From the IMG/VR virus record IMGVR_UViG_3300045988_123588: 64,000 nucleotides of DNA. The stretch is one strand, 5' to 3'. Shown here in pieces: positions 16,214 through 29,234 of the stretch. The position numbers were made by a program, and so were the translations under genes. A model generated the notes under the pieces. That model was not told the DNA's origin, did no database searches, and saw only the letters and a list, made by a program, of their open reading frames with translations. Positions within the stretch are counted from its first letter, which is position 1. Each line of letters begins with the position of its first letter. The stretch is from a virus.

Positions 16214-16789
16214 ATGGTACAATTAGAGTTCACAAAGATTAGAGATGTTAAATCTCCAAACCGAGCTAATGAGGGAGATGCAGGTTTGGATTTTTACATA
16301 CCTAAATTAACTATTGATGACATCTTAAAGGTAGGTGAGAAACATGAGAAAGATTTCACCGGTATCAATAGAAAGATGTTTGGTTGTGGTAACATAAAAT
16401 TCAAAGGCATAGATACTAATGGGTTATGTATAGCCCTTAATCCAGGAGGACGAATACTTATACCCTCTGGAATAAAGGTTCTTATCAATCCCAGGGAATC
16501 CATGCTCATGGCAGCAAACAAATCGGGAGTTGCTACTAAAGATGGATTAACATTTACAGCCGAGATAGTTGACAGTCCGTACACGGGAGAGATGCACATC
16601 GGGATTCAAAACGCTTCTACTGAACCAGTATATATACCCCTCAGAGAAGATAAGAAGATAATGCAATTCATACATGTTCCTATCATACTCTCAACACCGG
16701 TAGAGATTACCAACGAGGAGTATGAAGAGAAAGCAAAAAACTGGGGAACAAGAGGAGATAAGGGATTTGGTGCACACGATAATAAGTAA
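16214..16789 (+). CDS. dut: trimeric dUTPase
   Basis: GDAGLDFY, GGRILIPSGIKV, SGVATKDGL, IVDSPYTGEMHIGIQN and RGDKGFG correspond to dUTPase motifs 1-5. Confidence 0.85.
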   Translation: MVQLEFTKIRDVKSPNRANEGDAGLDFYIPKLTIDDILKVGEKHEKDFTGINRKMFGCGNIKFKGIDTNGLCIALNPGGRILIPSGIKVLINPRESMLMAANKSGVATKDGLTFTAEIVDSPYTGEMHIGIQNASTEPVYIPLREDKKIMQFIHVPIILSTPVEITNEEYEEKAKNWGTRGDKGFGAHDNK

Positions 16790-16793
16790 GACA

Positions 16794-17699
16794 ATGGATA
16801 GTCGCGATATAAAGGAAGAACCGAAAAATATAGAGGGTAATAGATATCTTGAGGAGATATACTTTATGCAAAAGAACCTCCTATCTGGTTATATCGGTAT
16901 AGAGGGGCTCCCACAGTATCCTATAGATATCAATACAAAAGCTTCTCAAACTTTACTCAAGGACTTCACTGCACGTGTAATAGAGGAGTTATCTGAGGGG
17001 TACGAATCTTTTCAGGCAGTGGATAGTATCATGCAGAACAGTCACTACAAGATTATATCTGGTGATGACCTGATATACATTGAACTACTTAATAACCTTC
17101 AAAATGCCAATGAGGAAAATGCAGATGCAGTACACTTCTTTGTTGAGTTGCTGATATATGCTAACATTCAGCCTGATGATATCATGGCATACATGGAGAA
17201 GTGGGTAAAGGATAACAAATGCGAACAGAGTACAGTAGATTACTTTAACTCTATACGTAATGATATCCTGTATACTGCTCAATCTATGGGAGTGAAGTGG
17301 TTGATGGATGAGAGAGATATAGAAGTAATCTTTGATAGTAACTCAACAAACCTGTTGAAGTGGTACGAAGAGAAAGACTCCGAAACTTTCCCTGAGTACA
17401 ATGAGAAACTGTTGAAAGGCGGTTATAAGTATAATCACGAAAACTATGCTCTTCAATATCCGTATATACTATGGAAGATAACTCACCATTTGAACATAGC
17501 TCGTAATTTCCTGAAGAATAAACCATGGAAGCAATCTCAGGTGATGACTCAGGAGTTAAAGTATCAGGCTGAGTTGGTGAAAGCTTTCATATACTTCTGT
17601 GGTTACCTCGGATGGATAGGTATGGATTCTAAGGAAGTGTTCTATATATACTTCAAAAAGAACCATATCAATATGTTCCGTCAAAAATCTAAGTATTAG
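16794..17699 (+). CDS. all-alpha (dimeric dUTPase/dCTPase, MazG-like) NTP pyrophosphatase
   Basis: ARVIEELSEGYE, EENADAVHFFVELLIY, KNKPWKQ and C-terminal YFKKNHINMFRQKSKY resemble the dUTPase_2 family. Start moved to MDSRD after the dut stop. Confidence 0.55.
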   Translation: MDSRDIKEEPKNIEGNRYLEEIYFMQKNLLSGYIGIEGLPQYPIDINTKASQTLLKDFTARVIEELSEGYESFQAVDSIMQNSHYKIISGDDLIYIELLNNLQNANEENADAVHFFVELLIYANIQPDDIMAYMEKWVKDNKCEQSTVDYFNSIRNDILYTAQSMGVKWLMDERDIEVIFDSNSTNLLKWYEEKDSETFPEYNEKLLKGGYKYNHENYALQYPYILWKITHHLNIARNFLKNKPWKQSQVMTQELKYQAELVKAFIYFCGYLGWIGMDSKEVFYIYFKKNHINMFRQKSKY

Positions 17700-17700
17700 T

Positions 17701-18693
17701 ATGAACATAGTTAGGGCAAAGAATCCTATTAAGGCCTGGGAATATTTAGTAGAGGGATTCCTACTGAAAAAACCCGAATGGTTTGGAGAAGGAGTTGGTT
17801 ACAATATAACCAACTCTCTTTTCACGTACGATATGTGCATAGAGATAGAAGAAGCCAAGTTTAATCCCAAGTTTGACTTTGGTAAGTTGTTCTGTTATAC
17901 CATGACTAAGTGGACTGGTTTAATAACCAACTACTTCGATTTAGATGTGCTTGATGAAGCTAAGATTATGATAAGAAAGTTGGAAGAAAATAAGGTAGTG
18001 AATAGAAACTACCATATAGGCTTTCACTTTGCAGACAATCATAATAGTGGAAAGGGATGTCTGGTGGGTGGAATATTCTCTCGTAAAATAGGTGTAGAAA
18101 AACCAGAGATAACTATCATTCTACGTTCATCAGATGTAGTAACCAGATTGCCTATGGATATGCTGTTATTCTGTAGACTCGGTGAATATGTATACGGACA
18201 TACTGATTTCAAACTGGTACTGATTCTGAAAGCAGCTTTTGCAGATGATACAGCTATACTTATGTACAACAATCATAAGGAAATAAAGAAGGTAATGAAA
18301 GGCTGTGAAGATGTAGAACGTAAGAGAAAGATACGCAAATCATTCAAGAGGTTGATGACCAGTGATGAGAAGGTATATAAGACTTATGGTCACAGTTTCA
18401 GAGCTTTCAAAGCTTTGAGGAAAGATCTCTCTTATAAACGTAAGTCAATGACTGCAGGTGAATTAGAGATTGGTAACTGGGATGGTATTCCTCTTCCATA
18501 TCCATGTTCTTCAATACTCAAACGAAATGAGATAAAGAAGACCTACTTAAAGTTCACTAGTAAGTATGGGCTTAAATTAAAGCTGGAAAGTGAAGGTAAT
18601 GAAGGCAAAAGAAAGAAGCTACTATCATTCGGAGCATCAGAAGGAGAGCCAGAAGAAGTTGGATATCAAATACCAGGACAAGAAGATGAGTAA
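17701..18693 (+). CDS. thymidylate-synthase-fold (ThyA-like) protein, paralogue A
   Basis: SGKGCLVGGIF (compare PCHxxFQF) and ILRSSDVVTRLPMDMLLFCRL (compare [21 protein letters not shown]). Asp at the Asn177-equivalent position. Confidence 0.5.
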   Translation: MNIVRAKNPIKAWEYLVEGFLLKKPEWFGEGVGYNITNSLFTYDMCIEIEEAKFNPKFDFGKLFCYTMTKWTGLITNYFDLDVLDEAKIMIRKLEENKVVNRNYHIGFHFADNHNSGKGCLVGGIFSRKIGVEKPEITIILRSSDVVTRLPMDMLLFCRLGEYVYGHTDFKLVLILKAAFADDTAILMYNNHKEIKKVMKGCEDVERKRKIRKSFKRLMTSDEKVYKTYGHSFRAFKALRKDLSYKRKSMTAGELEIGNWDGIPLPYPCSSILKRNEIKKTYLKFTSKYGLKLKLESEGNEGKRKKLLSFGASEGEPEEVGYQIPGQEDE

Positions 18694-19474
18694 GCTTAAA
18701 ATAAAGGGTAACCTGTTGCAGTTCAAAACCAGCATGAAAGCTTGGGAAGGACTTAACAGGTTATTTCTGTTCAATACCCTTGGTTTGGACATAGAAAGAA
18801 TTGGTAAAGCTCAATATATAAATGATTTAGTCATTAGTATTAATGAGCCTCTAGTAGACCCAGAATTTGATTTTGGTAGGCACTTCAACTACACCATGTC
18901 AAAATGGAAGTCATTAGTAGCTAATTACATTGATGAGAATAGTTTGATTGACTTAAGACAGGAAGTCAACACAGCTATGAACTCAAGGAAGATATTCAAT
19001 ATAGGTTATCAGTTTAATAATAAACATGCTCATGGGAAGAACTGCCTATTATCTATGACAGTGTCTAAAAAGGCTGGTATGGATAAACCCATGATAACCG
19101 TGTTCATGAGGGCATCAGAAGTTACTAAAAGATTAATATGTGATTTACTCCTCATTCAACGTATGGGAGAGTATATATTTTGCAATGGTCAGAAGTTTCA
19201 AGTATCAATACATTTCAGTCAGATATTTAATGATGATACTGTATTACTAATGTACCATGCTCATGAAGATTTACTAAAGCTAAGTGATAAACTTGGTATA
19301 TACGACGGGAATTGGTATGAGCGATTAGAATACCTACTAAAAGTAGACCCTGACAAGATAAAGTATAAGGTACATAAAAGAGCTTTGAAAGTACTAAGGC
19401 CAGAATTATTCAAGTACCCAAAAACTCTGGCAAAAGATTGTACACTTGGTAATGAAGACTGGCTACCATTCTAA
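18686..19474 (+). CDS. thymidylate-synthase-fold (ThyA-like) protein, paralogue B
   Basis: Collinear with paralogue A (KAWEGL, DPEFDFG, TMSKW, HGKNCLL, FMRASEVTKRLICDLLLIQRMGEY). ATGAGTAA overlap with A. Start moved to MSKLKIKG. Confidence 0.5.
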   Translation: MSKLKIKGNLLQFKTSMKAWEGLNRLFLFNTLGLDIERIGKAQYINDLVISINEPLVDPEFDFGRHFNYTMSKWKSLVANYIDENSLIDLRQEVNTAMNSRKIFNIGYQFNNKHAHGKNCLLSMTVSKKAGMDKPMITVFMRASEVTKRLICDLLLIQRMGEYIFCNGQKFQVSIHFSQIFNDDTVLLMYHAHEDLLKLSDKLGIYDGNWYERLEYLLKVDPDKIKYKVHKRALKVLRPELFKYPKTLAKDCTLGNEDWLPF

Positions 19475-19510: not shown

Positions 19511-19690
19511 ATGAAAATAGAAGTAAAGAAATCTCCTTATACCAGTAAACTCGGAGGAGATATAGATATAACTTTCTCCACTGATGATGGATGGTTATTT
19601 AATACCGTGGCCAACATAAGTGTAAAAGATTTAAGGCAGCTTAAAAGAAAGGTAAGGAGGTATCTAAGTGAAGTACGAGAGGAAAGGTAA
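19511..19690 (+). CDS. small protein (59 aa), paralogue of the next ORF
   Basis: Hand-translated; ISVKDLRQLKRKVRRYL parallels MNIQDLKELRKSIRKYI in 19668-19868. Confidence 0.35.
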   Translation: MKIEVKKSPYTSKLGGDIDITFSTDDGWLFNTVANISVKDLRQLKRKVRRYLSEVREER

Positions 19691-19868
19691 ACCATATTTT
19701 GGAGTGGAGATATCCAAGGGTAAATATCCCGATAGGAATAGCAGGGATATAGAGTTATCTATATGTATCAATGCTCATCATTGGGTAGGTCTTCCCAATA
19801 TGAATATTCAGGACCTAAAAGAACTACGAAAATCTATAAGAAAATATATTAAAAATAACGAACAATGA
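19668..19868 (+). CDS. small protein (66 aa)
   Basis: ORF with a GTG start overlapping the previous small ORF; ATGA overlap with the next gene. Confidence 0.4.
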   Translation: MKYERKGKPYFGVEISKGKYPDRNSRDIELSICINAHHWVGLPNMNIQDLKELRKSIRKYIKNNEQ

Positions 19869-20635
19869 GAATATATTCGAACCCTTACGAGTTAATGTCA
19901 GAAACTGCTCGTAATCTTTGGGAGATGGGTAATGAGGTAAAACCACGTACCTATCAGAATAAAGTTATCGAAGGCAAAGATGACTTTATTACAAAGGAAC
20001 TTATATGTGAGCAGTACTGTTTAACTCACATGGAAGACCCAGCTGCACTTTTCGTATTTACCAAGTCCAAGGACTGGGCAGATGCAGAACTAGAAGAGAG
20101 AGTAAGCGGTAGAATGGAAAATCCTGGCAAAGCTTGGGAACTTCGTAAGAATATTTGGGAAGAGTTTTTGGTCGATGGATTTTTTGACTATACCTATGCA
20201 GAACGTATGAACGAGACAGTTTCATACAAAGGTAAAGCATTCTCTAAACTCGAGGCAGTGATAGAACTGTTAAAAACAGATAACGATACAAGAAAAGCCA
20301 TATTAAATATATATGGTGAGGACGGTTTCAATGAAGATTGCGACTCAAACTACCTTGGGGGTGAACATAGAATACCATGTTCAATGTACTACGACTTCCT
20401 CATACGGGAAAATGCCCGAGGAGAGAAGCAGTTAAATATTTGTTATCACCAAAGGTCATCAGACTTTGTAACCCACTTCGGGAATGATGTATACCTGGCA
20501 TGGAGACTCATGGAATACGTAGCTAGAGAAGTGGGCATCAAACCTGGTTATCTCTATCATACTATTGATAGTTTGCATAGTTATAAAAAGGACTGGGTAA
20601 AGCTTAAAACTTCTATCCAGACCGAATTAAGGTAA
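19865..20635 (+). CDS. ThyA-family enzyme, dCMP hydroxymethylase/methylase-like
   Basis: LLKTDNDTRKAILNIY, RIPCSMYYDF and ICYHQRSSDFVTHFGNDVYLAWRLMEYVAREVGIKPGYLYHTIDSLHSY are collinear with E. coli ThyA. Asp replaces Asn177. Confidence 0.8.
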   Translation: MRIYSNPYELMSETARNLWEMGNEVKPRTYQNKVIEGKDDFITKELICEQYCLTHMEDPAALFVFTKSKDWADAELEERVSGRMENPGKAWELRKNIWEEFLVDGFFDYTYAERMNETVSYKGKAFSKLEAVIELLKTDNDTRKAILNIYGEDGFNEDCDSNYLGGEHRIPCSMYYDFLIRENARGEKQLNICYHQRSSDFVTHFGNDVYLAWRLMEYVAREVGIKPGYLYHTIDSLHSYKKDWVKLKTSIQTELR

Positions 20636-20713: not shown

Positions 20714-20787
<74 letters not shown>

Positions 20788-20864
20788 CTTATGAATCTTT
20801 ACTTTGCGCTGTGGACAACGAGTCCTGATTCATTCCCAGGTACTGGACGGTAGTGATATAGACT

Positions 20865-20874
20865 GGTACCTAAT
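20865..20874 (+). repeat. GGTACCTAAT 10-mer, copy 4 of 4, 2 nt upstream of tRNA-Pro
   Basis: Identical 10-mer at 49911-49920, 50484-50493 and 51467-51476. Confidence 0.8.
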
Positions 20875-20876
20875 TT

Positions 20877-20951
20877 ACGGAAGTAGCACAGTCCGGTCAG
20901 TGTACTTGCTTTGGGAGCAAGGGGTCGCAGGTTCGAATCCTGTCTTCCGTA
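20877..20951 (+). tRNA. tRNA-Pro(TGG): tRNA-Pro (anticodon TGG)
   Basis: 75 nt: acceptor ACGGAAG/CTTCCGT, anticodon stem CTTGC/GCAAG, loop TTTGGGA, T-arm GCAGG-TTCGAAT-CCTGT. Confidence 0.85.
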
Positions 20952-21062
20952 CAAGGGCTATATGCTGGGTCATAACAGGAGATACGACCTCCAGCTAGCA
21001 ATGGGCAATAACCTGGTACGAGATACCAAAACCCATAATTAAAGTCGAAGGCTATAGCTTTA

Positions 21063-21100
21063 GGAGATGAGCGAAGAACAGTACCTCATCTCCCCTTTTG
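21063..21100 (+). terminator. hairpin plus T-run just upstream of tRNA-Leu (terminator or processing structure)
   Basis: GGAGATGAG...CTCATCTCC followed by CCTTTTG. Confidence 0.4.
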
Positions 21101-21105
21101 TAAAG

Positions 21106-21191
21106 GCTCGGATGGTGAAATAGGTAGACACGCCGGACTTAAAATCCTGTGACCAGCAATGGTCGTGCGGGTTCGATTCCCGCTCCGAGTA
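21106..21191 (+). tRNA. tRNA-Leu(TAA): tRNA-Leu (anticodon TAA), class II long variable arm
   Basis: 86 nt: acceptor GCTCGGA/TCCGAGT, loop CTTAAAA, variable arm GACCAGCAATGGTC, T-arm GCGGG-TTCGATT-CCCGC. Confidence 0.8.
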
Positions 21192-21206
21192 CAAAATACC
21201 CTGAAC

Positions 21207-21542
21207 ATGACAATCACATTCAAAGATTATCCTTGCGGTACAATTTCATTAGGTACTTCAGTAACAAGAATACCTAACTCATATCGGATTAAATCTATCC
21301 GAGATATGGAATATATAATCAACCGTTCTAGAGAAGAAGTAAATAAAAGTCCAGCATTCCATACGTTTGCAATAAATAAAAGAACTACAGCTGGTATGAT
21401 TATTGAATGGCGAGCCCATAATATGCTATATGCACTGCATATAAAAAGGAATCGGACTCGAACGGTTGACCTGGATATAAATGAACCATGGTACCGTAAA
21501 GTAGGATATGTAATATTATCAACACTATACTTAAGATGGTAG
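21207..21542 (+). CDS. hypothetical protein
   Basis: 111 aa; start moved to MTITFKD so that it no longer overlaps tRNA-Leu. Confidence 0.5.
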   Translation: MTITFKDYPCGTISLGTSVTRIPNSYRIKSIRDMEYIINRSREEVNKSPAFHTFAINKRTTAGMIIEWRAHNMLYALHIKRNRTRTVDLDINEPWYRKVGYVILSTLYLRW

Positions 21543-22144
21543 AAATCACAAACGTAGACGTTTATGACTTAGAGAAGTCAATTATAGCATGTAGGAATGC
21601 TATGCGTACAGAACCTGTATTTCCAATAGGCGTAGATGCTTGGGGACATCCAATTTACGAACAGAAGGAGTGGGATGATTCTTTCAAGAGGGCAAAATCA
21701 CTTGCCAAATCTCCCTCAAACAGTGGTCACCCTAATTTTCTAACCGGTATAAGGGTATCATTTGATATTCTGTACCCAAACTACTTTTCACCCGAGTTAC
21801 AACGATATCATTGGATAGACATTGTAACCTCATCTTCAAAGATGCACCGACTTGGTGAAATTGTAAAGAAGGAATCTTTTAACAAGTATGTAACTCCAGA
21901 GGTCATAGCTATAGTTCAGGACTTGGCCAATAAGTTCATTGAGGACCCCAGCTATGAGAATCGCATCAAGCTGTTAAGTAACTGCCCTCTCGGAATAGAG
22001 TTATTCATGAGGGTAAGTACAAACTATATGCAACTACGGAATATATACTACCAGAGGAAAGACCATCGCTTGAGAGAGGATTGGGGGTCATTTTGTAAGA
22101 TGATTCAGGAATTACCATTCTTTGATGAATTTATCAATCAGTAG
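21536..22144 (+). CDS. ThyX-fold (flavin-dependent thymidylate synthase-like) protein with a divergent active-site motif
   Basis: SGHPNFLTGIRVSFDILYPNYFSPELQRYHWIDIVTSSSKMH is collinear with the ThyX motif GHxxPxEHxxFTFxI...RHRxxSxxxxSxRY. VSTNYMQLRNIYYQRKDHRLREDW parallels the ThyX C-terminal motif. RHR is replaced by RYH. Confidence 0.55.
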   Translation: MVEITNVDVYDLEKSIIACRNAMRTEPVFPIGVDAWGHPIYEQKEWDDSFKRAKSLAKSPSNSGHPNFLTGIRVSFDILYPNYFSPELQRYHWIDIVTSSSKMHRLGEIVKKESFNKYVTPEVIAIVQDLANKFIEDPSYENRIKLLSNCPLGIELFMRVSTNYMQLRNIYYQRKDHRLREDWGSFCKMIQELPFFDEFINQ

Positions 22145-22521: not shown

Positions 22522-24810
22522 ATGGAGTCAAGATATGCTATAATAAAGAGTTTCTCACAAGTCAAGCGGCTTGTGAAAGCCTGTTTGAAAACAGGTATAG
22601 CTTCCGTCGACTTCGAGACAAACGCAGAGGGTATTTATAATAAAACCTTCAAACCAACCATCTTATCCATAACCTTTCAAGTTGGTTCTGGTGTATCAAT
22701 TCCACTATGTCATCATGAATATAAAAACCCTCGTTGGAAACGTTGGTTAAAGTATTTTGGTAGGAAAGTGGTTGAGAATCCTAATATAACTAAAGTAGGA
22801 TGGAATCTGAAGTTTGACCTTCAGATATTTGAGTTGTTTGGAATATATGTTAGGGGTACAGTTCTAGACGGTATGCTTATGAAGTACCTTCTGAACGAAG
22901 AGAAACCTAATGACTTGAAGTCCATGGTTAGAAGGTATCTACCAGAACATGGGGATTACGAGAAGTCAGATAAATTCGACAAGATACCATGGGATAAGAA
23001 ACCTTTAGAACCATTATGCAAGTATGGTTGTCAGGATACCGATTACACTCTTAGGTTAGCTATGTTCTTTGAAAGCAAGCTGATAGAGGTTGGTATGTAT
23101 CCATTATTCAGGCATTTGATTATGCCTGCTTCACGGGTATTGCAACATGCCGAGAAAACAGGATTATATCTCGATAGGAAGTTCAATCAGGAATTACTTG
23201 AATCTTATAAACCAAAGATTGACCAAGCAACTTCTAATTGCTTGAATCTTCCTCGAGTGAAAAAATTCTCTAGATGGCTTGTCCAAGAAAGAATAAGCAA
23301 ATATCTTGCATCTATTGAAAGTGAACTTGAGGATTTAGATTACAATGATCCGAAGGATGCCCGTAAAATAGCAAGCAGGGAACAAAAAATATCTAACATC
23401 CGAGCAGGTGTATTCACTACTAAAAAGGAATTGGAATTAACCCGAGAAGTAAACTTAGGGAGTCCTATTGACTTACCTTTGTTATTATATTCTAAAAAGG
23501 GATTTAACTTTCCGATAATAAAATACACAAAGGATAAGAAAACAAATCGTGATACTGATAAGCCAAGTACTGATGAGGATACGTTGGTAGAACTTAGGTT
23601 AACGGTTAAAGACCCAGAAAGTCCAAAGGCAATATTCCTGGATAACCTTCTTGAGTTGAGAGGGTTAAAGAAAATGTATACAACATATATAGAGGGGTGG
23701 CATGATAAGGTACAGGATGATGATAGGATTCATGGTCAATTCAAAATCATTGGTACTACATCAGGACGACTGAGTAGTTCTGAACCCAATCTACAGCAGA
23801 TACCAAAGACTTCAGTAGATGCTAATATTAAGAAACAGTTAGTAGCTCCAAAGGGGAAACTATACATGGCACTAGACTACTCTCAGGCAGAGTTAAGAAT
23901 CATGGCACACCTTTCAGGAGATGAGACTTATCTTGAGGCATTTGCCAAGGGTCAGGACCCTCACCTTGCTATTGCAGCAAACAAATATGGGGTATCATAC
24001 GAGGAAGCAAACAAAGCTTATAGCGATGAACAACATCCCGATTATAAGCTTTGGAAAAATCGAAGGAAGCAGGCAAAGCAGATATGTTTCGGTATTATAT
24101 ATGGTATTCAGAAGAAACTGCTTGCAGTTAAACTATCTGACCCAAAAGCTGGTATTATCGTAACTCCAGATGAAGCTCAACAACAGCTGAACGAGTTTTT
24201 CCAAGAGCACCCAAAGATTAAGAAGTTCATGATTAACCAAGAGAAAGTATTGGTAAGACATGGATATATTAAATCTCTGTTTGGTAGGAAAAGAAGATTA
24301 CCTCAAGTATATTCTGATAATGAGCAAGAAGCTGCATACGCAGTACGATTATCAGTTAATATGCCATGTCAATCAGCTGCATCCGATATGACTTTGTTTG
24401 CATCTATACTTAATTACTGGAAGATTAGGCAGGGCATATTACCACCTCTATTGGAAACATGTACTGTACATGATGCTGTTTATTACCTGACAGACCCAGA
24501 ATATATAAACATATTCACAGTGTATAATATATGGGAAACATGCCGTAACCCGAGTACAAAAGAATATTTCAAGTTTGAAATCAATGATGTCGATATGTCT
24601 ATGGACTTTACTATAGGACGTTCGATGGCTGAGGAGTTACCGTATATACCGGGATATGACTATAGAAAAATGCTTCAACCAGATTTCAATGTGGAGAAGT
24701 ATTTGGAAGAACATCGGAAATGGAAAGAGCTATCCATTAAAGAGTTCCCAAAGAAGTTTCCGGAATACTTTAAGAAGGATTACTCATGGCGAAAGGAAAA
24801 GGTGGCATAG
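22522..24810 (+). CDS. family A DNA polymerase with 3'-5' exonuclease domain
   Basis: Exo motifs VDFETN, NLKFDL, YGCQDTD; pol motifs A DYSQAELRIMAHLSGD, B RRKQAKQICFGIIYG, C VHDAVY. Confidence 0.9.
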   Translation: MESRYAIIKSFSQVKRLVKACLKTGIASVDFETNAEGIYNKTFKPTILSITFQVGSGVSIPLCHHEYKNPRWKRWLKYFGRKVVENPNITKVGWNLKFDLQIFELFGIYVRGTVLDGMLMKYLLNEEKPNDLKSMVRRYLPEHGDYEKSDKFDKIPWDKKPLEPLCKYGCQDTDYTLRLAMFFESKLIEVGMYPLFRHLIMPASRVLQHAEKTGLYLDRKFNQELLESYKPKIDQATSNCLNLPRVKKFSRWLVQERISKYLASIESELEDLDYNDPKDARKIASREQKISNIRAGVFTTKKELELTREVNLGSPIDLPLLLYSKKGFNFPIIKYTKDKKTNRDTDKPSTDEDTLVELRLTVKDPESPKAIFLDNLLELRGLKKMYTTYIEGWHDKVQDDDRIHGQFKIIGTTSGRLSSSEPNLQQIPKTSVDANIKKQLVAPKGKLYMALDYSQAELRIMAHLSGDETYLEAFAKGQDPHLAIAANKYGVSYEEANKAYSDEQHPDYKLWKNRRKQAKQICFGIIYGIQKKLLAVKLSDPKAGIIVTPDEAQQQLNEFFQEHPKIKKFMINQEKVLVRHGYIKSLFGRKRRLPQVYSDNEQEAAYAVRLSVNMPCQSAASDMTLFASILNYWKIRQGILPPLLETCTVHDAVYYLTDPEYINIFTVYNIWETCRNPSTKEYFKFEINDVDMSMDFTIGRSMAEELPYIPGYDYRKMLQPDFNVEKYLEEHRKWKELSIKEFPKKFPEYFKKDYSWRKEKVA

Positions 24811-27675: not shown

Positions 27676-28585
27676 AAAACCGAGGATGCTTATGGTAGTG
27701 GACGGGAGTAATCTTGCTCACCGTTCATACCATAAGTTTAAGAATCTAAAAGCCAACAACGGAGTTGGTACAGGGTTGGTATATGGATTCTTAAGAATCT
27801 TAGGTTCATACCTAACAAGGTTTAAGCCCAGTCATGTAGTAATTACTTTCGATACTCAACAGAGCAAAGAGTCAAATTTCCGTAATGGTCTACTCGAAGG
27901 TTACAAAGCACATAGGAGTAAGATAAGTATGGATTATGAAGACTTCAATAAACAATTATCATTGTTGAGAAGGATTCTAAGATTACTCGGAGTTCAGATG
28001 ATTATTGATAGGAAGGGCCTGGGATATGAATCTGATGACTACATTGCTTGGTTGGCAATAAACCACCCAGGTAAATCTCTGATAATATCCTCTGATAAAG
28101 ACTTCTGTCAATTGCTTGATAAAAGAGTCAAGATATTCAATCCTAACAAAGATACCATAATCCTAAACCAAACCTGCAAGGATATCATGGGTTACTCTGC
28201 TGAGGAATGCGTTGACTACCTAATACTTAATGGAGATAAGTCAGATGATATCCCAGGTTATTACGGTATGGGAGAAGTGAAGACAAAAGCTTTCTTAAAA
28301 CAGTATGGGAGTATATCAGACTTCATAGATGCAGTCGGAGCAGAGTTCAAGGGTATTGAAAGGGACCAGCTAGAAGAGTTATACAAGAAGAACAAGCCTC
28401 TGATAGACTTGAGAACAGCATTAACTCTGCACCCAATCAAGAAAGTCCCTTGGGTAAAAGGATGTACTAATAATAAAAGGAAGGATAGGTTATTCATGGT
28501 ATTAGACAAGTTTAACCTTAGGTCTTTCAAGATACCCGATTTTTTGGAACCTTTCAAAAAACTACAACATTATGTACAACGGTAG
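27665..28585 (+). CDS. 5'-3' exonuclease / flap endonuclease (RNase H-like)
   Basis: MVVDGSNLAHRSYH, FDTQQS..FRN..YKAHR, ESDDYIA, SSDKDFCQL. The start could also be 27686. Confidence 0.85.
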   Translation: MRGRKPRMLMVVDGSNLAHRSYHKFKNLKANNGVGTGLVYGFLRILGSYLTRFKPSHVVITFDTQQSKESNFRNGLLEGYKAHRSKISMDYEDFNKQLSLLRRILRLLGVQMIIDRKGLGYESDDYIAWLAINHPGKSLIISSDKDFCQLLDKRVKIFNPNKDTIILNQTCKDIMGYSAEECVDYLILNGDKSDDIPGYYGMGEVKTKAFLKQYGSISDFIDAVGAEFKGIERDQLEELYKKNKPLIDLRTALTLHPIKKVPWVKGCTNNKRKDRLFMVLDKFNLRSFKIPDFLEPFKKLQHYVQR

Positions 28586-29234
28586 GAAATACCAAATCAT
28601 GTTCACCGGAGTTTCGGGAGTTGGAAAAACAACTATTGCCAAGGAAGTGGCAGATATGTTAAAGATACCTTTCATATCTGGGTCATATTCTGACTTGGTA
28701 CCTGAAACTAAAAACATGCCACATGCTGATATGATTCAGCAGGATGCCGAAACGGTATTCACACAGGATATGCAGGTACTTAATCTGCGTAACAAAGCTT
28801 TCAGGGGAGAAGATAGCTTTGTAACAGACAGGTCATACTTTGACTCAGCAGCATACTTTATCAATAAGCTATCACATAGGTTAGCTGAATGCGATTTAGA
28901 ACATGCTGTAGACTTATGTCGTATGTTACTTGGTCAACAATGTACTCATTTAATCTTCATACCTTTCTCAGCAAGATTTTTCAATGAGTGGGTAACAGAA
29001 GATAACGGTAAACGAGTACTATCAAAGTACTACCAATTCCAGGTATCACAGGTAATGTACGGACTACTTGACCTGTGGGGTTTCAAACTAGATTCAAATA
29101 TATTCCAGTATGTAAATGGTATTCCCAATACTGGTACATTGGATATCATGGGTTACAAGATTAAAGTCATGATATTGGATGAGATGAACTACGAAAAAAG
29201 GAAAAACCTTATCAACAAATTTCTTCAGTTATGA
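28572..29234 (+). CDS. P-loop nucleotide kinase-like protein (dNMP kinase or DNA-base kinase candidate)
   Basis: IMFTGVSGVGKTTIAKEVA Walker A; TDRSYFDSAAYF resembles the dNK/NadR-type kinase motif. Confidence 0.5.
   Translation: MYNGRKYQIMFTGVSGVGKTTIAKEVADMLKIPFISGSYSDLVPETKNMPHADMIQQDAETVFTQDMQVLNLRNKAFRGEDSFVTDRSYFDSAAYFINKLSHRLAECDLEHAVDLCRMLLGQQCTHLIFIPFSARFFNEWVTEDNGKRVLSKYYQFQVSQVMYGLLDLWGFKLDSNIFQYVNGIPNTGTLDIMGYKIKVMILDEMNYEKRKNLINKFLQL

Follow-up and report, generated by a model that had tools for sequence, protein, structure and literature searches.

Homologs of thymidylate synthase (ThyA) produce modified pyrimidine mononucleotides for phage DNA (PMC13326640). Two phage-encoded examples act on deoxycytidine monophosphate (dCMP): T4 gp42, a dCMP hydroxymethylase that works with a deoxycytidine triphosphatase (dCTPase) and a deoxynucleoside monophosphate (dNMP) kinase in pre-replicative cytosine replacement, and AfhB, which uses dCMP for DNA modification (PMC13326640). 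Single residues help to predict what such enzymes do: an Asp at the position of ThyA Asn177 marks dCMP-using homologs, an acidic residue at the Leu143 position marks hydroxymethylation, and an Asn at the Asp169 position marks 5-hydroxy-dCMP synthases (PMC13326640). Here we analyze a 64,000-nucleotide (nt) stretch of viral DNA (IMG/VR record IMGVR_UViG_3300045988_123588, hereafter the window), in which two adjacent genes encode proteins, paralogs A and B, that are predicted to adopt the ThyA α/β fold.

We hold with moderate confidence that A and B are lineage-specific paralogs within a clade of the ThyA/dCMP hydroxymethylase superfamily that is small, deeply divergent and so far undescribed, and that both are active enzymes working at C5 of cytosine nucleotides in a pre-replicative pathway. 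The invariant residues, the purifying selection and the neighbors that always recur (a pyrophosphatase, a dCMP-type ThyA homolog, a kinase and a polymerase) are best fitted by active modification of cytosine deoxynucleotides before replication.

Two overlapping genes encode collinear paralogs

A preliminary description had reported two collinear open reading frames (ORFs) with overlapping ends, and both lie where it placed them:

17701..18693, plus strand: paralog A (ORF A), 330 amino acids (aa), as in the ORF listing
18686..19474, plus strand: paralog B (ORF B), 262 aa, starting with the ATG at 18686
18686..18693, plus strand: ATGAGTAA, the 8 nt in which the stop codon of A is overlapped by the start codon of B

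BLASTP aligns the two proteins collinearly with 33% identity over 266 columns (expectation value E = 7e-43), and all of the shared blocks quoted earlier are found (KAWEYL/KAWEGL, NPKFDFG/DPEFDFG, TMTKW/TMSKW, SGKGCL/HGKNCL, RSSDVVTRL.../RASEVTKRL... and FADDTAILMY/FNDDTVLLMY). The ORF listing puts the start of B further upstream, at a GTG at 18590; homologs begin MSKLK, which supports the ATG at 18686 as the true start. The reading frame of B is +1 relative to that of A. The 8-nt overlap, an ATGAnTAA-type junction, is kept in 113 of ~150 locus entries (redundant sets), among them distant relatives at 43–56% identity. The tight coupling proposed for the pair is real, and it is interrupted in some lineages by a ThyX gene between A and B.

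Predicted structures place the pair in the ThyA superfamily

The preliminary description had guessed a ThyA fold from the sequence and had named fold prediction as a check. We built AlphaFold2 monomer models, predicted structures that each drew on an alignment of the protein's own homologs, and they recovered the fold with confidence; the contrary outcome did not arise. The model of B has a predicted local distance difference test (pLDDT) score of 91.4 and a predicted template modeling (pTM) score of 0.90, and that of A has a pLDDT of 84.7 and a pTM of 0.82, with an extra helix (272–289) and a disordered tail. A consists of a ThyA-fold core (1–250), a conserved C-terminal extension (~250–290), a Lys-rich stretch and then an acidic disordered tail, and B of a ThyA-fold core without the extension. 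When the models were compared with the Protein Data Bank (PDB) by Foldseek, the top matches to B all belonged to the ThyA superfamily (best AfhB, 9iqu; E = 3e-6, template modeling (TM) score 0.59), and the top 50 matches to A were all ThyA-superfamily enzymes (best again AfhB, 9iqu; E = 2.8e-5); the top matches of both models had a probability of 1.00. In both rankings AfhB was followed by MilA, T4 dCMP hydroxymethylase and ThyA. The BFVD search returned uncharacterized family members first and then phage ThyA and gp42 proteins.

A broad profile of 58 family members, run against the whole PDB, had AfhB as its sole match (E = 1e-4, two collinear stretches), and PDB searches with single sequences and narrow profiles returned nothing relevant. 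Pfam, NCBIfam and PHROGs hold no informative family for A or B: B matches only phrog_34294 (function unknown), and A has a weak match to TIGR03283. The family is small, with 259 clusters at E ≤ 1e-3 and 79 at E ≤ 1e-30 in an exhaustive hidden Markov model search of 1.84 billion cluster representatives, and the ortholog family of A comprises 137 proteins. In some members (P0367, P0393, P0407 and P0413) the C-terminus runs on into a long tail, either Lys-rich or with GRP or RGRPRK (AT-hook-like) motifs; these long forms hold no fused Pfam domain, only low-complexity basic tails. By predicted fold and putative catalytic core the A/B family falls inside the superfamily, and it lies outside every described sequence family.

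Conserved residues form an active-site-like pattern

Across the 58 members, down to ~18% identity, only Tyr81, Cys120, Arg142 and Asp153 are invariant, and Tyr69, Lys73, Trp74, Leu77 and Phe110 are nearly so. The candidate catalytic residues of the two proteins are:

Paralog A: Cys120 (18058-18060), Arg142 (18124-18126), Asp145, Asp153 (18157-18159)
Paralog B: Tyr81, Cys120 (19043-19045), Arg142 (19109-19111), Glu145, Asp153 (19142-19144), Tyr190

In the hhalign register, Cys120, Arg142, Glu145, Asp153 and Tyr190 of the family fall on Cys146, Arg166, Asp169, Asn177 and Tyr209 of Escherichia coli ThyA. This supports the earlier statement that both proteins keep the Cys nucleophile context and the Arg-to-Asp/Glu core of the fold: the Cys and the R-x-x-D/E segment correspond to Cys146 and Arg166...Asp169. 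Spacing and topology agree with this register. The family and ThyA have the same order of elements (Cys, strand, hairpin, strand with the Arg, long helix with the Asp); Cys120 opens strand 121–128 and stands 22 residues ahead of Arg142, compared with 20 in E. coli ThyA; and Asp153 follows Arg142 by 11 residues, exactly as Asn177 follows Arg166. Arg142 has a Ser at +1 or +2 and a Glu or Asp at +3; hhalign matches this segment to R166/S167/D169, and HMMER matches it to AfhB. On AfhB, the broad profile aligns R142, E145 and D153 with an Arg, an Asn (the D169N position) and an Asp (the N177D position), respectively.

With invariant Asp153 at the Asn177 position, where it also aligns with protein C and AfhB, the A/B family carries the published mark of dCMP users. 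Where hydroxymethylases have an acidic residue, three residues before the Cys, it has a nearly invariant Gly117. The preliminary description had also drawn attention to a Glu in B at the Asp169 equivalent; the difference exists (Glu145 in B, Asp145 in A), and we reject it as meaningful, since Glu is the family norm at position 145 and A orthologs carry either Asp or Glu.

A arose as a duplicate of B, and both are under purifying selection

Both subfamilies share a core of W20, FDFG, Y69, K73, W74, N80, Y81, F110, H114, G117, K118, C120, R142, S144, R149, D153, R159, Y190, Y227 and R232. Consistent differences between them are few: Asn in B and Asp in A at position 112, Thr-Lys in B and Val-Thr in A at positions 147–148, and Asn in B and Gly in A at position 68/65. 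The ratio of nonsynonymous to synonymous substitution rates (dN/dS), each protein being compared with a close relative, is 0.048 for A and 0.048 for B, indicating purifying selection on both. In a rough neighbor-joining tree without support values, the A clade is monophyletic and long-stemmed and is sister to the B clade, and both are nested within a family of single-copy proteins. The C-terminal extension of A is conserved (AKDCxIGNWDGIPLPxxCPSIxxRNxIKKxYLKF) and by eye resembles the long single-copy members, and B is cut off where this extension begins. To judge from the sequences, A is a lineage-specific duplicate of B that arose in one group of ~75–85 kb gut phages, and that retained the ancestral C-terminal extension while altering a few residues beside the predicted active site (N112D, T147V/K148T). 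This pattern points to a specificity that has been split or altered and not to a dead subunit.

The pair belongs to a conserved nucleotide-metabolism module

The preliminary description missed the context of the pair, which consists of two pyrophosphatases upstream, a third ThyA homolog (protein C) downstream and a kinase further on:

16214..16789, plus strand: trimeric dUTPase-like protein, 191 aa, which opens the nucleotide-metabolism block (PF00692, E = 1.5e-8; phrog_135)
16722..17699, plus strand: all-alpha nucleoside triphosphate (NTP) pyrophosphatase, dimeric-dUTPase/MazG-like, start codon uncertain (PF08761 dUTPase_2, E = 5e-7; phrog_12184 nucleotide pyrophosphohydrolase, E = 4e-19)
19865..20635, plus strand: protein C, 256 aa, a ThyA/dCMP-hydroxymethylase homolog 390 bp downstream of B (PF00303, E = 4e-17)
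22522..24810: PolA
28572..29234, plus strand: P-loop kinase, 220 aa (Pfam Cytidylate_kin2 and SKI, both sub-threshold; phrog_2107 thymidylate kinase, E = 2.8e-8)

The first of these also matches the NCBIfam model for dUTP (deoxyuridine triphosphate) diphosphatase (E = 4e-15), below the curated cut-off. The second ends at 17699, one base ahead of the ATG of A, and is a candidate dCTPase/dUTPase supplying dCMP. The kinase is a candidate dNMP kinase for the modified nucleotide and a presumed member of the module.

This arrangement recurs widely. Among 80 viral loci seeded with B, C lies downstream of B in 79/80, the exception ending at a contig edge; A stands ahead of B in most of them, and seven have B and C without A. 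Looking for the pair in other phages had been suggested in the preliminary description, and among 80 loci seeded with A we found B in 79/80 and C likewise in 79/80. These counts indicate that A occurs only where B does, and B only where C does. Most of the wider family has just one copy of a B-like protein, so B can do without A.

Distant members (~20–37% identity) sit in a module of the same type, including in cultured Clostridium perfringens phages. In these distant relatives the module consists of a pyrophosphatase, the B-like gene, a ThyA of PF00303 and PolA; some loci also have a dCMP deaminase, or a PolA fused to uracil-DNA glycosylase (UDG). Wherever such phages were examined, the B-like gene is close to the PF00303 ThyA and PolA, and in nearly all it comes just after a dUTPase_2-type pyrophosphatase. 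A homolog of this pyrophosphatase precedes the B-like gene in most loci examined, namely in C. perfringens phage CPAS-15 and in loci L162, L166 and L167, and, by N-terminal sequence, in L068/L071/L074/L078; the ORFs upstream in L164 have no Pfam match and are MazG-like by eye only. The slot between pyrophosphatase and B varies, holding A, A plus ThyX, a 321-aa ThyA-like protein or nothing. The ThyX is clear (L056:5125-5766; PF02511, E = 2.8e-48), and the 321-aa protein that takes the place of A (L068:5014-5979) has an N-terminus that by eye reads as canonical ThyA. No conserved small partner ORF was found upstream of single-copy B-like genes, where the small ORFs are mutually unrelated. In CPAS-15, the B-like gene CPAS15_0021 (L081:6833-7582) lies between a gene annotated as dUTPase and a thymidylate synthase homolog (CPAS15_0020), and a gene annotated as shikimate kinase (177 aa) is directly upstream of the pyrophosphatase; GenBank labels CPAS15_0021 "colanic acid biosynthesis glycosyltransferase WcaC", apparently in error. 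C. perfringens phage CPD4 likewise has the kinase, the pyrophosphatase, the B-like gene and the ThyA homolog.

Two further observations concern the distant phages. One of them encodes a second PF00303 homolog whose residues 177 and 143 are Asn and Asp, a dUMP (deoxyuridine monophosphate)-hydroxymethylase-like signature (L167:5454-6098). PolA is fused to a UDG domain in two (L167:9543-11387; L166:9880-12618).

The preliminary description had spoken of other Bacteroidota phages, a label that genome collections do not confirm: their only matches were phage-sized contigs binned into metagenome-assembled genomes (MAGs) of disparate taxa, which assign no host. Six contigs of 61–83 kb that carry the module (L169-L174) resemble whole phage genomes and are placed in MAGs of Dysosmobacter, Clostridium, Romboutsia, Mycoplasma, Spirochaetaceae and an archaeon; these placements are probably binning artefacts.

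Protein C is a ThyA homolog of the cytosine type

Relative to E. coli ThyA and T4 gp42, protein C retains Cys146, Arg166-Ser167-x-Asp169, His207 and Tyr209 and shows N177D, L143R and G173H. Its best sequence match in the PDB is AfhB (E = 2.4e-5), and C and AfhB keep the Arg-pair motif (R126/R127), unlike the A/B family as judged by inspection. Every ThyA partner of a B-like protein has the same N177D/L143R/G173H combination with Asp169 retained (C of the window, L081:7626-8387, L162:9180-9965, L164:7392-8204, L166:8914-9657 and L167:8054-8731). On these residues C is classed as a cytosine-type enzyme with an unusual signature. That signature fits none of the published ones that predict a product (methyl, hydroxymethyl or hydroxy), and the C-type partner may itself have an uncharacterized activity.

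Compared with relative L002, A and B are 97–98% identical (synonymous divergence, dS, 0.19–0.30) and C only 87% (dS ~1.0), while in other relatives C is 95% identical and A 73%. This pattern suggests recombination among the A, B and C genes, that is, a mosaic module.

Other features near the pair

The remaining features between B and PolA include two small ORFs and a tRNA cluster:

19511..19690 and 19668..19868, plus strand: two small ORFs of 59 and 66 aa between B and C, overlapping each other
20714..21192: three tRNA genes (Met-CAT, Pro-TGG and Leu-TAA), directly after C

The small ORFs are weak paralogs of each other (BLASTP E = 1.6e-6) with a common C-terminal DLxxLxxxxRxY, and the second runs 4 nt into C. 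Neither matches any family, and their membership in the system is uncertain. The Leu tRNA overlaps the start of ORF 21159..21542, which makes that start doubtful. Between the tRNA cluster and PolA lies a conserved 202-aa protein (21536..22144; phrog_6721, E = 1.9e-36, function unknown); an RYH...SSS segment had raised the idea of a degenerate ThyX, for which Pfam and PDB sequence searches give no support. A helicase, a primase, a single-stranded DNA-binding protein and a UvsX-like recombinase are encoded nearby in the window, as is the P-loop kinase.

A proposed pathway for cytosine modification before replication

We infer that A and B are catalytic, that their substrate is a cytosine nucleotide and that they serve to modify DNA. 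In the mechanism that we propose, Cys120 would add to C6 of a cytosine deoxynucleotide whose 5′-phosphate is held by Arg142 and whose N3/N4 face is read by Asp153, after which a group would be installed or exchanged at C5. A and B would act at the level of the mononucleotide. The upstream NTP pyrophosphatases would turn dCTP into dCMP, the dCMP-type ThyA homolog C, the phage kinase and the phage PolA would be partners in the pathway, and the end result would be phage DNA with a non-canonical cytosine. The conserved neighbors, a dCMP-type ThyA homolog and a nucleotide pyrophosphatase, indicate that the phage probably makes a modified DNA base that has yet to be recognized. More tentatively, an A/B-type protein and its N177D/L143R/G173H partner may between them make a C5-modified cytosine nucleotide that has not been described, perhaps because the partner's product passes through another Cys-dependent reaction or because a cofactor other than folate is used. 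A:B or B:C heteromers may form, and to judge from the basic or GRP-containing tails of some members, action on DNA or tethering to it may also occur.

Several results weigh against active cytosine-nucleotide enzymes of this kind. The Asn at the Asp169 position that is diagnostic of AfhB is absent, with Glu in B and most members and Asp or Glu in A orthologs. By inspection of the 58-member alignment, no conserved DxRR-type Arg/Lys pair (R126′/R127′ in ThyA) was seen before the equivalent strand, and no folate-binding residues could be identified. The sequence links to ThyA are weak: A and B match no Pfam family, PF00303 is not reached at E ≤ 1 by any of the 58 members, hhalign of the family with protein C, E. 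coli ThyA and T4 gp42 as the aligned target gives a probability of only 10–12%, and the match to AfhB consists of two weak collinear stretches. The residue equivalences accordingly come from weak profile alignments and a matching order of secondary structure, not from superposed coordinates. The Lys-rich or GRP tails of the longer members could indicate nucleic-acid binding. Finally, among the window ORFs scanned (part of the window, in which many ORFs carry no annotation) we found no glycosyltransferase or other downstream modification gene.

Alternative roles for A and B

The preliminary description had favored a heterodimer, and we consider it unlikely that A and B form an obligate A:B complex of one catalytic and one regulatory or specificity-altering subunit that share residues across the interface in the manner of ThyA. 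The tandem genes and the 8-nt start/stop overlap kept in many relatives would suit such a complex, as would the near absence of A without B (79/80 A-seeded loci carry B), the complementary outcome of the duplication, in which A kept the extension and B lost it, and the subfamily-specific changes near the active site. However, neither subfamily has lost any of the conserved core, Cys120, Arg142 and Asp153 included, dN/dS is equal at ~0.05, and neither protein resembles a pseudoenzyme; a full core in both proteins, each under purifying selection, argues against a split into catalytic and regulatory subunits. B-like proteins are also single-copy in most of the family, and ThyX sits between A and B in some lineages. 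The rationale of partner-borrowed Arg residues likewise falters, since the broad alignment, on inspection, holds no conserved Arg-Arg motif of the R126′/R127′ type.

An improbable alternative is that A and B are non-catalytic, serving as nucleotide-binding scaffolds or as allosteric partners of C or of a replisome-attached complex that synthesizes deoxynucleoside triphosphates. B-like and C-type genes do occur together in every complete locus examined, no cofactor-binding motif is recognizable, and the acidic C-terminal tail of A and the basic tails elsewhere could mediate contacts with protein or DNA. The family-wide invariants, though, are a nucleophile-type Cys, a phosphate-type Arg, a base-reading Asp and a Tyr, which is what an active site, and not a scaffold, would be expected to show.

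Comparably improbable is post-replicative action of A and B on DNA itself and not on free nucleotides, with the Cys adding to a pyrimidine within the polymer; the ThyA fold would then have been put to a new use. To our knowledge, all characterized members of the superfamily act on mononucleotides. The Lys-rich or GRP (AT-hook-like) C-terminal tails of several members, together with a conserved basic helix in the extension common to A and the long single-copy forms, are what one might expect of DNA-level action, but such tails are missing from short forms, B and the CPAS-15 protein among them, and the module holds the usual enzymes of a pre-replicative route (NTP pyrophosphatases and a kinase, joined in some phages by a dCMP deaminase).

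A ThyA fold with Cys and Arg retained might suggest that A, B or both are far-diverged thymidylate synthases making thymidine monophosphate for the phage; this is very improbable, and we reject it given the invariant Asp at the Asn177 position, which is of the cytosine type (PMC13326640), and the genuine ThyX or apparently canonical ThyA that resides beside B and C in relatives.

Implications

Active modification of cytosine nucleotides by A and B would extend a superfamily in which flavin-dependent hydroxylation was recognized only in 2025–2026. The A/B family forms a further branch that standard annotation does not see: Pfam has no model for it, its PHROG has no assigned function, and one copy in a cultured phage is mislabeled as a glycosyltransferase. 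Our literature search found no paper that describes the family, and nothing specific on the related GenBank phage records or on DNA modification in C. perfringens phages. If the family is active, it predicts an unrecognized modified base in abundant gut phages, with consequences for evasion of restriction and CRISPR and for how well such phages sequence; widespread human-gut phages and cultured C. perfringens phages would then carry a DNA base so far overlooked. Because the module is also present in the cultured phages, the prediction is directly testable.

Comparison with characterized ThyA-superfamily enzymes

ThyA itself (PF00303) resembles A and B in overall fold and in how strands and helices follow one another around the Cys, the β hairpin, the Arg and helix J, and its Cys146, Arg166 and possibly Tyr94/Tyr209 have equivalents in the pair. 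It differs in having Asn177 where they have Asp, and its Trp80/Trp83 segment is much shorter in the A/B family. MilA, a cytidine monophosphate (CMP) 5-hydroxymethylase, is the second-best structural match and a ThyA homolog specific for cytosine nucleotides; it differs in being ribonucleotide-specific and belonging to antibiotic biosynthesis, and it is larger, with superpositions at a root-mean-square deviation of 14–17 Å.

T4 gp42 shares with the pair the fold and the Asp at the Asn177 position, but no sequence similarity between them is detectable, and the acidic residue at the Leu143 position of the T4 gp42 and MilA type is replaced by Gly117 in the A/B family. A gp42-like role in this phage is more plausibly that of protein C.

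The closest characterized relative of A and B is AfhB, a flavin-dependent dCMP 5-hydroxylase of phage HY126 (PDB 9iqu/9iqc; RB69 gp48 and DLP3 gp80 are of the same class). Identity to the pair is only ~12–16%, AfhB has D169N where the A/B family has Glu or Asp, and it keeps an SRR segment (the ThyA R126/R127 strand) for which no conserved counterpart was seen in the family. Its nucleophile Cys can be seen in its sequence when aligned to protein C. Like A and B, AfhB is a short ThyA-fold enzyme, it is their best structural match (TM score ~0.6 on the target), and it has an Arg and an Asp (the Asn177 position) in register with R142 and D153; A and B, unlike AfhB, have extra C-terminal helices with conserved Tyr227 and Arg232.

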